64,000 nucleotides of DNA from Escherichia coli (lineage in GTDB: Bacteria > Pseudomonadota > Gammaproteobacteria > Enterobacterales > Enterobacteriaceae): the NCBI RefSeq assembly GCF_016903815.1, contig NZ_CP069974.1. One strand, written 5' to 3'. Shown here piece after piece: positions 61,401-64,000 of this stretch (positions are counted from its first letter, which is position 1; each line of letters opens with the position of its first letter). The position numbers are program-made.

Positions 61401-64000
61401 TTTACGGGCCACTGATAATCTTTGTTTCTCTGCATCAGAAAGCGGATTCCCCTTTCTGTATGCTCGTTTTGCGCCAGATGAGGAAGTCACTGTATTTTCT
61501 GTCTGCGACATCTCGCCTCCTCAATACTTAAACAGGGATCGTTTCGCAGAGAATACTACAGTTTTTTGAAATCAGCGACTTGAAAGTTGTGACGATGATC
61601 TGTGTTGGCGCACAAATCATGTCTGATTACGACCGTTTAATGTAATTTTGATAATAAAATGACTGAAAAGTAGGAAATGCTTTAACCAGGGTACCGGCCC
61701 CGGGCGGGACCGGCAGTTTCTAGCATTTCGGGTGTCTGCCCCTGAAATACCTCACACTTCCGGAAAGCGGGGACTTCCGTCCCCGCCCGGCAGCTTACTT
61801 CCGTGCTTCAGGCCAGAGTTACCTGCACCACTGTATTTCCCCTGTGAATATTCAGTTCACATAACTGTTCCCTGAATATCAGTGAAAAACACAACACCGT
61901 GGCGCACACGGCAAGCAACCCGATAAGGGTATATTTCGTCATAAACTTTGACATCTTTGCAAAGAAGAGGCTACAATCAGTAGTGCTAAAGTGCATCATG
62001 CAGACCTCACGAGTTAATGGATTAACGAGTGGGGTCTTCGCATTTCTGAAACCTGCGTCTTATTCAGCCATTCTTCGGTCATCTGCAGCAGTTTTCTTGC
62101 ATCGTGACTTCTGAGCAACGGAATGCCAGCCTGCCTCAGAACCTCTTCCAGAAGAGTATCCCAGCATCTGCGTTCCGAACGTAAATGACTGTCATCAGCC
62201 AGCTATACTGCTGCAACAATACTGAACGAACGCCGTTCAACGATAACCACATCGACATGCACTGAGATACCATCCTGAATAACAGCCACCACTGGCGCGA
62301 TCAGATATTAGTTGTCTGGAGATTCAGGGGACAACCTAACTTGAGCCCGCTATAGCGCGAAGCCGAAAATTATTGTTCGTATGCTCCCGCTGGTCCAGAA
62401 TGGGAATTTCCTCTGGCTGATGTTGAACTGTCATGGAGAATTGAAACTTGTTTAAGACTTTGGCAGCCTACTGTTTTTAATACACCCAATAAGGTATGAA
62501 GATGAAACTAGGGAAGTTAATACCGCCATGAAAAGATAAATAATACCCGTGGAATATATTTCCTCATGTTACTCTCCATATCAAATAAATGGCACCTGTA
62601 TTTCAGACATCCTGAATATTACAGCACACATTGAACAACACCTTATTTTGTGAAATTAATCACAAAATATAAAATCTCGACTTAATACGGAAAAAAATCT
62701 GTGCTACTCAGAACTGTCCGGTCATACTTCCCGACCGGATATTAAAAAAAGCAAATCTCATAAACTTCTTTCAGCCTTCTGACTCCTGGAGTAATGAAGG
62801 CTGCTTTTTTCGTTACCCCCTTCCCCGGCAACGCCGGTGGCAGTGTGCAGCCCTTTTTCGGGCAAACTGCTGCCAGTCTGTCCGGGGCGCAACACCGGCA
62901 GCCCGTCGCCATGCTTCTGCCGCTTCCATCCTGCGTCCACTGACCTCCAGAATAACGGCCCGGCTTCCGGCACGCTGCCAGCACCAGACCTGACCGTTCC
63001 GTGAACTGTTTCTGAATCCATTCATATTTCTGTCCCCCTTTAGTTGTCAGTATTATTGTGATAAATAGCTCAGTGGAATGGCTTTCTTTCGGGTACGGAA
63101 GTTATTTCCTTTTAAGCCTTATTTCCCTGCCTCCCCTCCCTGAGGGAGGCTTTTTTTATTTCTCATCAAGCACGGCCTGAAGTTCTGCCTTTATCCGGTT
63201 CTGGCGGCGGATTTTATCCAGACGCGCTGCCGCATACGCTTCCTCCTCCTGAGAAATATGCTCCGTCACATACCCTTCCGTATCATACCGGCAGGCACCG
63301 GCTTTCATGGCACACAGATAGCTTTCTGAACGGGTGATGGCCTTCAGCGCCCTGCGCAGTTTTTTATGCGAGAGCGGGATATTCCGCTGCGCCACGTCTT
63401 CCAGTAACACGTCCCGGATACCGCAGGCCAGAAGCCGGGGCGTGTCACCGTCAAATAATCCCGGCCACCAGGGCTTCAGGGTGTTCACAGCCTCATCCAG
63501 TGTGGGCAGGTTCAGATAAATGGACAGCGCCTGTCTGGCCTGCGCTTTTTTTGCCGCCAGCTCTGCTTCCCGGGCTGCTTTCTCGGCCAGCTTCTGCTTT
63601 TTCACCTTCCACTTTGGTGGCGTGGTGACATTGATGATGGTTTTCCGGCTGCGGACAGGCGTCTCCCCTTCCGTTTTCCGCTTCAGTGTCAGTACCGGTC
63701 GCTTCTGCTCTGTCATGCTGTGTTCTGCCTCTGACGAATCATCCTCTTGCGGCCAAAGATACCACACCCGTCACAGCGCCAGAACGCCCAGCACAGCCAG
63801 ATGACAGGCGTAGAATACCGGGAAAAAATCCCCGGGCCAGAAACGGGGTAATGATTTTCCTGCACACGACACCAGACCAACGGTCAGCACCGTCATCACA
63901 AGACCGGCCACCGCCGCTGCATCACTGGTGGCAAGGTTAAGCGCCGGAATAACAGCCAGCAGGCAGGCGACCAGCGCCAGACGTTCCGCTCTGTCTTCCG

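Follow-up and report, generated by a model that had tools for sequence, protein, structure and literature searches.

A plus-strand intrinsic terminator at the finO stop codon of F-like plasmids and the small RNA gene that it may end

At its right end, the Escherichia coli DNA analysed here (64,000 nucleotides (nt) of contig NZ_CP069974.1, hereafter the window) contains the finO-distal edge of an F-like (IncFII) plasmid, and at the 3' end of the minus-strand gene finO the opposite strand carries a hairpin followed by seven T residues (63129-63157). Judged from the sequence and its relatives, this element is very probably a functional Rho-independent terminator of the plus strand. Whether it ends a short autonomous small RNA (sRNA) appears to us an evenly balanced question, and the case for such an RNA rests on strand-specific conservation of structure, on a paralog and on the boundaries of the conserved block. 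Taking these together, we lean towards a plus-strand terminator at which a probable, unannotated sRNA ends and which keeps convergent transcription out of finO. The initial annotation of this stretch had suggested both an unannotated plus-strand transcript and the protection of finO from antisense read-through; on comparative evidence, both now belong to the best-supported reading, and the transcript has been refined to a short unit of ~63073-63157 that would have its own -10-like box and a further hairpin (SL1) upstream of the terminator hairpin (SL2).

On the plus strand, 63129-63157 reads GCCTCCC CTCCCTGA GGGAGGC TTTTTTT, with an 8-nt loop and a tract of seven T (T7), which is exactly the sequence from which the initial annotation had proposed a canonical intrinsic terminator convergent with finO; anatomy, terminator scanning and comparative data all agree with that proposal. 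An alternative pairing of SL2 gives a 6-bp stem with a 3-nt loop (CCTCCC-TGA-GGGAGG, 63135-63149), and the final two T residues (63156-63157) fall within the TAA stop codon of finO (63156-63158, minus strand). The plus strand shows what is expected of an intrinsic terminator: a G+C-rich stem no shorter than 5 bp, a loop between 3 and 8 nt in length and an immediate U-tract. A terminator scan of 58-64 kb ranked SL2 first (7 pairs, 6 of them G-C, a loop of 8 and the tail TTTTTTTATT). Under a strict rule (a perfect stem of >=7 bp with >=5 G-C pairs, a loop of 3-8 and >=6 T within 0-1 nt of the stem), the site was the sole match on either strand of the whole 64-kb window, and 100 dinucleotide-preserving shuffles of the window gave a mean of 0.02 such sites; terminator prediction, the check that the initial annotation had named, therefore bears it out. 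On the minus strand, the sequence 3' of the stem (AGGGAAATAAGG / AGGGAAAUAAGG) has no T-run and the scan lists no terminator there, and because AGGGAAATAAGG follows the stem on that strand, SL2 is no terminator for finO. The 5' flank of the hairpin on the plus strand is UUAUUUCCCU and not an A-tract, which is not the form of a bidirectional terminator. Compared with the intrinsic terminators of convergent gene junctions, the site has the same G+C-rich stem, short loop, immediate seven-U tract and end at the convergent stop codon; it differs in that no annotated plus-strand gene feeds SL2 and in that it is not bidirectional.

The statement of the initial annotation that finO is the only annotated gene at the site holds only in part, as a 70-amino-acid open reading frame (ORF) of the ANR family also adjoins it on the minus strand, so that the hairpin is intercistronic on that strand (Table 1). 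Any plus-strand RNA at the junction is consequently antisense to transcripts reading through from finO into the ANR gene, and such read-through is probable because no minus-strand terminator follows finO.

This junction is very common: it was matched in >5000 plasmid records and was present in 3325 of 5426 complete E. coli genomes. The features annotated under the match are FinO and a hypothetical protein only, and RefSeq has no RNA or regulatory feature there. Our comparisons used 13 plasmid loci at differing identity levels and one metagenome scan, the anchors of which (AAGCCTTATT and the 3' coding end of finO) both lie outside the hairpin. This sample comprised 29 distinct junction variants with 17 distinct hairpin sequences. 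The outer stem GCCTCC/GGAGGC is almost invariant among the 29, and the inner stem and loop vary in sequence and length with their pairing retained, as in GCCTCCTT-TAGTGTG-AAGGAGGC and GCCTCCCCGG-TTT-CCGGGGAGGC. All 29 variants have the stem, with plus-strand energies of -7.8 to -21.4 kcal/mol, and all have a T-run of 5-9 on its plus side; the 3' flank on the minus strand is never T-rich (UGAAACAAUAAGG / GGAAAAAUAAGG in other variants). When the 17 hairpins were folded with RNAfold, the plus strand was the more stable in 11, the two strands were equal in 2 and the minus strand was the more stable in 4. Several changes that recur in several backgrounds (GCCTTC, GGAGGT and the stem extension of variant L008) pair through G.U, and do so solely as plus-strand RNA.

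A finO lineage of 78% nucleotide identity (L004; 256 records) carries at the same position and in the same orientation as SL2 a hairpin unrelated to it, GCCCTCTG-TCATA-CAGAGGGC, whose tail is T-rich and which again has an ANR-type ORF next to it on the minus strand; in its upstream hairpin, an A-to-G change yields U.G on the plus strand. After finO in Salmonella pSLT there is no such hairpin, and another ORF begins ~27 nt past the finO stop; a same-strand terminator is therefore no general feature behind finO, and transcription that continues into the following gene looks normal. A degenerate pattern scan of the genome_contigs collection returned 48 loci, against ~57 expected by chance, of which 7 were true members, each on a short contig resembling mis-binned plasmid DNA of E. 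coli, and none represented a new lineage. Six short contigs with the finO junction (L148, L149, L155, L164, L180 and L189) occur in assemblies named Lachnospiraceae, Rikenellaceae, Streptomyces morookaense and Acinetobacter idrijaensis; most probably, this is plasmid DNA of E. coli that was mis-binned or entered the assemblies as a contaminant.

SL2 forms the 3' terminus of a conserved module of ~85 nt, which consists of a -10-like box, SL1, an invariant single-stranded AAGCCUUAUU and the terminator itself. The core of this linker, AAGCCTTATT, is found in all junctions derived by BLAST except L004, and also in the paralogous copies described below; it is a candidate seed or protein-binding segment, and matches to its 10-mer complement in the rest of the window did not exceed chance. 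Junctions of a second class (class 2; 31 metagenome copies) have a different intergenic sequence, in which SL1 reads CCTTCTTC-tgccgggtatg-GAAGAAGG as compared with GGCTTTC-tttcgggtac-GGAAGTT. For 21 distinct junctions, RNAalifold gave a plus-strand consensus of SL1 and SL2 at -19.8 kcal/mol and a best minus-strand fold at -12.3. Over the whole module, 98.0% of the alignment cells are paired on the plus strand and 80.3% on the minus strand, and for SL1 alone the values are 98.1% and 73.3%. Many positions exchange G.U for A-U or C-G for U.G, so that pairing is preserved on the plus strand only.

With a covariance model built from the finO junction, we found a second, diverged copy of the module ~9 kb away on an F-type metagenome contig (L033:9332-9418), as well as in plasmid F (NC_002483.1 10453-10539; L144:2733-2819), at L142:1607-1696, in L143 and in other IncF plasmids, with scores of 39.7-45.8 bits (E ~1e-6 to 1e-9). 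Plasmid F also holds a finO-junction copy. No finO or ANR gene lies beside the paralog copies in plasmid F and L142/L143; in F the paralog sits between Tn1000 and an EAL-domain gene, which has its own terminator ~165 nt off. The paralog retains a TATAAAT box, SL1, the linker GUAAGCCUUAUUUUUC, SL2 (CCUCCUU...AAGGAGG) and U7; its SL1 differs in sequence and pairs as ACUUCCA/UGGGGGU, two of the pairs being U.G. In a comparison of two alleles of the paralog, the module and its upstream box are 96% identical and the flanks 70-79%, and the conserved block stops exactly at the T-run. When class 2 and the paralogs were included, 10 of 17 pairs had changed on both sides with pairing kept (98.1% of cells paired), among them five of the 10 pairs of SL1; shuffled controls gave 2.1 +/- 1.3 such pairs (0/500 reached 10) and slid controls <=5. 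The module thus has two of the properties looked for in an independent sRNA, namely a plus-strand structure supported by covariation and an occurrence outside the finO/ANR context. Just downstream of the EAL gene (L033:9543-9609; plasmid F ~10664-10730) we also noticed a consensus extended -10 sequence, TGgTATAAT, followed after ~30 nt by a strong hairpin, CAGAACCACCC-gctatat-GGGTGGTTCTG, which is preceded by an A-run and followed by a T-run; this may be a bidirectional terminator with a very short transcript.

In each of three lineages, an AT-rich box precedes the SL1 foot by ~7 nt (TGaTAAATA in the window, TGtTATAAA in class 2 and TATAAAT in the paralog), and from its position transcription is predicted to start at the SL1 foot, at ~63073-63076, which would give an RNA of ~82-86 nt. 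Other plus-strand transcription may reach the site as well. The upstream search for plus-strand sRNAs that the initial annotation had recommended yielded AS-pc02, a described RNA, whose modelled 3' end has no hairpin with a T-run, and which could possibly run into SL2. Promoter-like plus-strand sites are present at 61948-61977 (11/12 matches) and 62648-62675 (TTGTGA-16-TAAAAT), and it is plausible from these sequences that plus-strand transcription in this region has more than one start. A second plus-oriented hairpin lies at the ANR stop codon with a geometry like that at finO, in that its T-run is opposite to the gene strand, and its T5-T6 was conserved in all loci examined. SL2 would then be the last and strongest plus-strand stop before finO. 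The initial annotation had also pointed to small plus-strand ORFs; the one considered, a 40-amino-acid ORF at 63058-63180, was rejected as a gene, as it runs through the terminator and its frame is not kept, being shifted among the relatives by hairpins that range from 20 to 25 nt and by T-runs that range from 5 to 9.

Several observations weigh against an sRNA gene that ends at a plus-strand terminator, and they are best considered together with the explanations that they favour. The TAAATA box lacks T at -7, has no good -35 element and scores middling in a crude matrix, and a scan of 63026-63128 for the sigma-70 consensus found no promoter on either strand. Moreover, the ANR start codon and its Shine-Dalgarno sequence lie immediately to the left, so that part of the conservation must serve the ANR gene. 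These points suit the explanation that SL2 is an insulating terminator only, which stops longer plus-strand transcripts (AS-pc02 from ~62.7 kb, or transcripts from a srnC/sok-type promoter at ~61.95 kb), with 63059-63128 acting as the ANR promoter or 5' leader. The position of AS-pc02, upstream on the same strand and without a terminator at its modelled end, and the two promoter-like sites are consistent with this explanation; however, SL1 retains its pairing on the plus strand (98%) but not on the minus strand (73-74%) and shows compensatory changes in class 2. The paralog of plasmid F also keeps the box, SL1, linker, SL2 and U7 in a block that ends at the T-run, with neither ANR nor finO nearby. 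In addition, the conserved hairpin and T5-T6 at 62772-62810 should already halt much of the upstream plus-strand transcription, and no consistent minus-strand promoter for the ANR gene was predicted across the junction classes, which fits read-through into that gene from finO. We therefore regard a terminator without an sRNA of its own as rather unlikely, although it is the strongest of the alternatives.

A second group of objections concerns the strand. The window's own sequence folds nearly equally on both strands (-26.1 kcal/mol on the plus and -25.1 on the minus strand), and the strand asymmetry is for this reason a property of the family and not of one sequence; the U/G-rich composition of the module accounts for part of it. 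SL2 by itself is nearly as good on the minus strand (90% paired), the four of 17 hairpins noted above are more stable there, and one variant (L105) pairs better there. It is conceivable that the stem-loop works for the finO cistron at its 3' end, by terminating transcription weakly, by blocking 3' exonucleases or as a site of processing through which the stability of finO mRNA relative to ANR is set; this would be compatible with a plus-strand role. Such an element would explain why the hairpin follows the finO stop by 5-7 nt in every lineage and remains linked to finO across breakpoints of recombination and of insertion sequences (IS): homology between the classes starts at 63114, and L003 retains the hairpin after an IS insertion. 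The hairpin is also stable as minus-strand RNA (-14.7 kcal/mol in the window). On the other side, no variant has a U-tract on the minus strand, which would leave the conserved T-run without a role, SL1 does not hold on that strand, the paralog has no upstream minus-strand gene to serve (the EAL gene having its own terminator), and finO of pSLT manages without such a hairpin. We consider a minus-strand function of this kind improbable. Both this explanation and that of a terminator without an sRNA are weakened by SL1 and by the paralog.

The remaining objections concern the comparative evidence itself. The junction sequences are closely related, mostly within ~10% divergence, so that little can be concluded from persistence alone. 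Profiles of nucleotide diversity did not distinguish constraint from relatedness: the diversity is 0.085 for SL1 and likewise 0.085 for the third codon positions of finO, which makes conservation alone a weak proof. The compensatory events come mostly from two diverged lineages, class 2 and the paralog, in an alignment fitted to the model. Template-switch mutation can, furthermore, give palindromes apparent compensatory changes without selection on the RNA. A palindrome that arose by chance or is a relic, functionless on both strands, would draw on this relatedness, but it is very hard to reconcile with 0.02 strict-rule sites expected per window, with a hypervariable loop between fixed stem arms, and with a structure that is kept in class 2 and the paralog and has an analogue in L004; we give it almost no credence.

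If a plus-strand terminator and a short sRNA are both present, the following model can be proposed. RNA polymerase on the plus strand, approaching finO and the tra operon from their 3' end, would stop at 63129-63157. SL2 would be the only strong plus-strand stop between the replication/srnB/AS-pc02 region and finO, and by ending convergent transcription exactly at the finO stop codon, it would keep antisense RNA and colliding polymerases away from finO and the distal tra genes. A transcription unit of ~82-86 nt (~63073-63157), made up of the box at 63059-63067, SL1, the AAGCCUUAUU linker and the terminator, would have the usual layout of an sRNA. More speculatively, finO transcripts may read through into the ANR gene, the short RNA, which would be perfectly complementary to the finO-ANR junction, may act on them in cis, and the invariant linker may pair with other targets in trans. 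We tentatively suggest, with slightly more doubt than assurance, that F-like plasmids carry an undescribed family of sRNA genes encoding a two-hairpin RNA of ~85 nt with AAGCCUUAUU, present as one copy at finO and a diverged copy in F, and acting through a chaperone of the Hfq/ProQ type rather than of the FinO type in cis on RNA reading through from finO into ANR, in trans on further mRNAs of the plasmid or the host, or in both ways. The feature is ordinary in kind, an intrinsic terminator, and the sRNA is a modest lead. In E. coli and its relatives, however, resistance and virulence genes travel mainly on F-like plasmids, and how often these transfer is set by the amount of FinO. As a terminator, the hairpin would explain how the 3' end of tra/finO is shielded from transcription of the replication and antisense-RNA region; were the sRNA real, it would be a very widespread unannotated plasmid RNA adjoining the gene of an RNA chaperone, and most E. 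coli isolates would have an extra regulator at the fertility-inhibition end of their transfer region.

AS-pc02 is one of the known RNAs closest to the module. Like the proposed sRNA, it belongs to the plus strand of the finO-distal region, and it is a non-coding RNA antisense to the ANR-type ORF; the RF02876 model stops 213 nt before SL2, however, and excludes SL1, the linker and SL2. No family of Rfam 15 covers the module at permissive thresholds in 62600-63300, where AS-pc02 was the only match above threshold; terminator-shaped matches below threshold to suhB (19.9 bits), Hrs1 (19.1) and anti-hemB (17.3) were set aside. In layout, the module also resembles the 3' module for Hfq binding of enterobacterial sRNAs, which Ishikawa et al. 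reportedly defined in 2012 as a U-rich stretch, a terminator hairpin and a long U tail: here, UUAUUU(CCCU) precedes the terminator hairpin, U7 follows it and a further hairpin lies upstream. The FinO-dependent plasmid sRNAs FinP and RepX are ~75-85 nt long and have two hairpins, a single-stranded spacer and an intrinsic terminator (PMC8136791). In size and two-hairpin layout the module is like them, and one of the two comes from the finO-bearing plasmid itself; the module has no antisense relation to traJ, however, and a search for FinP in 56-64 kb gave no match. In FinO ligands, a purine-purine mismatch stands beneath the terminator's closing base pair (PMC12001967). The corresponding flanking positions of the module are U/U and C/U (A-U in other variants), which is not the FinO-ligand pattern; it is the pyrimidine-type mismatch pattern reported for ProQ ligands (PMC12001967). 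The study of FinO by RNA immunoprecipitation and sequencing in Salmonella (PMC8136791) is uninformative on this point, as it concerned pSLT, which is without the hairpin. In the literature, we found no report of a finO terminator, of RNAs downstream of finO or of these hairpin sequences.

Table 1. Positions of the module and of neighbouring features in the window
Feature	Position	Strand	Remarks
Candidate extended -10 box TGaTAAATA	63059-63067	+	Weak match
SL1	63075-63108	+	GGA..GGCUUUC / loop UUUCGGGUAC / GGAAGUU..UCC; RNAalifold consensus
U-rich single-stranded linker	63109-63128	+	Invariant AAGCCTTATT at 63114-63123; unpaired in the consensus fold
Terminator hairpin SL2	63129-63150	+	GCCTCCC / loop CTCCCTGA / GGGAGGC
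T7 tract, terminator U-tract	63151-63157	+	Directly 3' of SL2
finO (186 amino acids)	63156-63716	-	Pfam FinO_N 2.1e-39, ProQ/FinO 4.1e-27; FinO in identical plasmid records
traX	from ~63771	-	
70-amino-acid ANR-family ORF	62813-63025	-	Downstream of finO; strong Shine-Dalgarno sequence GGGGGA
Second plus-oriented hairpin	62772-62810	+	CAGCCTTC ... GAAGGCTG, then C and T6; abuts the ANR stop (62813-62815)
AS-pc02	62731-62916	+	Rfam RF02876, antisense to pHK01_099; full-length match, 179.3 bits, E = 8e-47
srnB/hok-type ORF		-	
repA2/copB		-	
repA1		-	Past the IS21-family insertion
CopA	58451-58541	+	Rfam match

The assignment of the 70-amino-acid ORF to the ANR family comes from a weak match to NCBIfam ANR_neg_reg (E = 1.8e-5; 24.5 bits, under the cut-off of 32), and its counterparts in many related records are named ANR family regulator. 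This ORF, which was compared with L137:1561-1749, is variable among plasmids: ~66 nt of the window's ORF are missing from its interior in F, and alleles of a second class (starting MNGTGRDSQ...) recombine with either intergenic type. Upstream of AS-pc02, a perfect CRP-type palindrome, TGTGAaattaaTCACA (62649-62664), overlaps the promoter-like site at 62648-62675 and is conserved in nearly all related loci. Farther to the left, the IncFII copy-control region is split by the IS21-family element ISEc12 (istA, istB; 58795-61097, plus strand), which separates repA2/copB from the CopA RNA, tap and repA1 (57509-58541 and 61257-61511).

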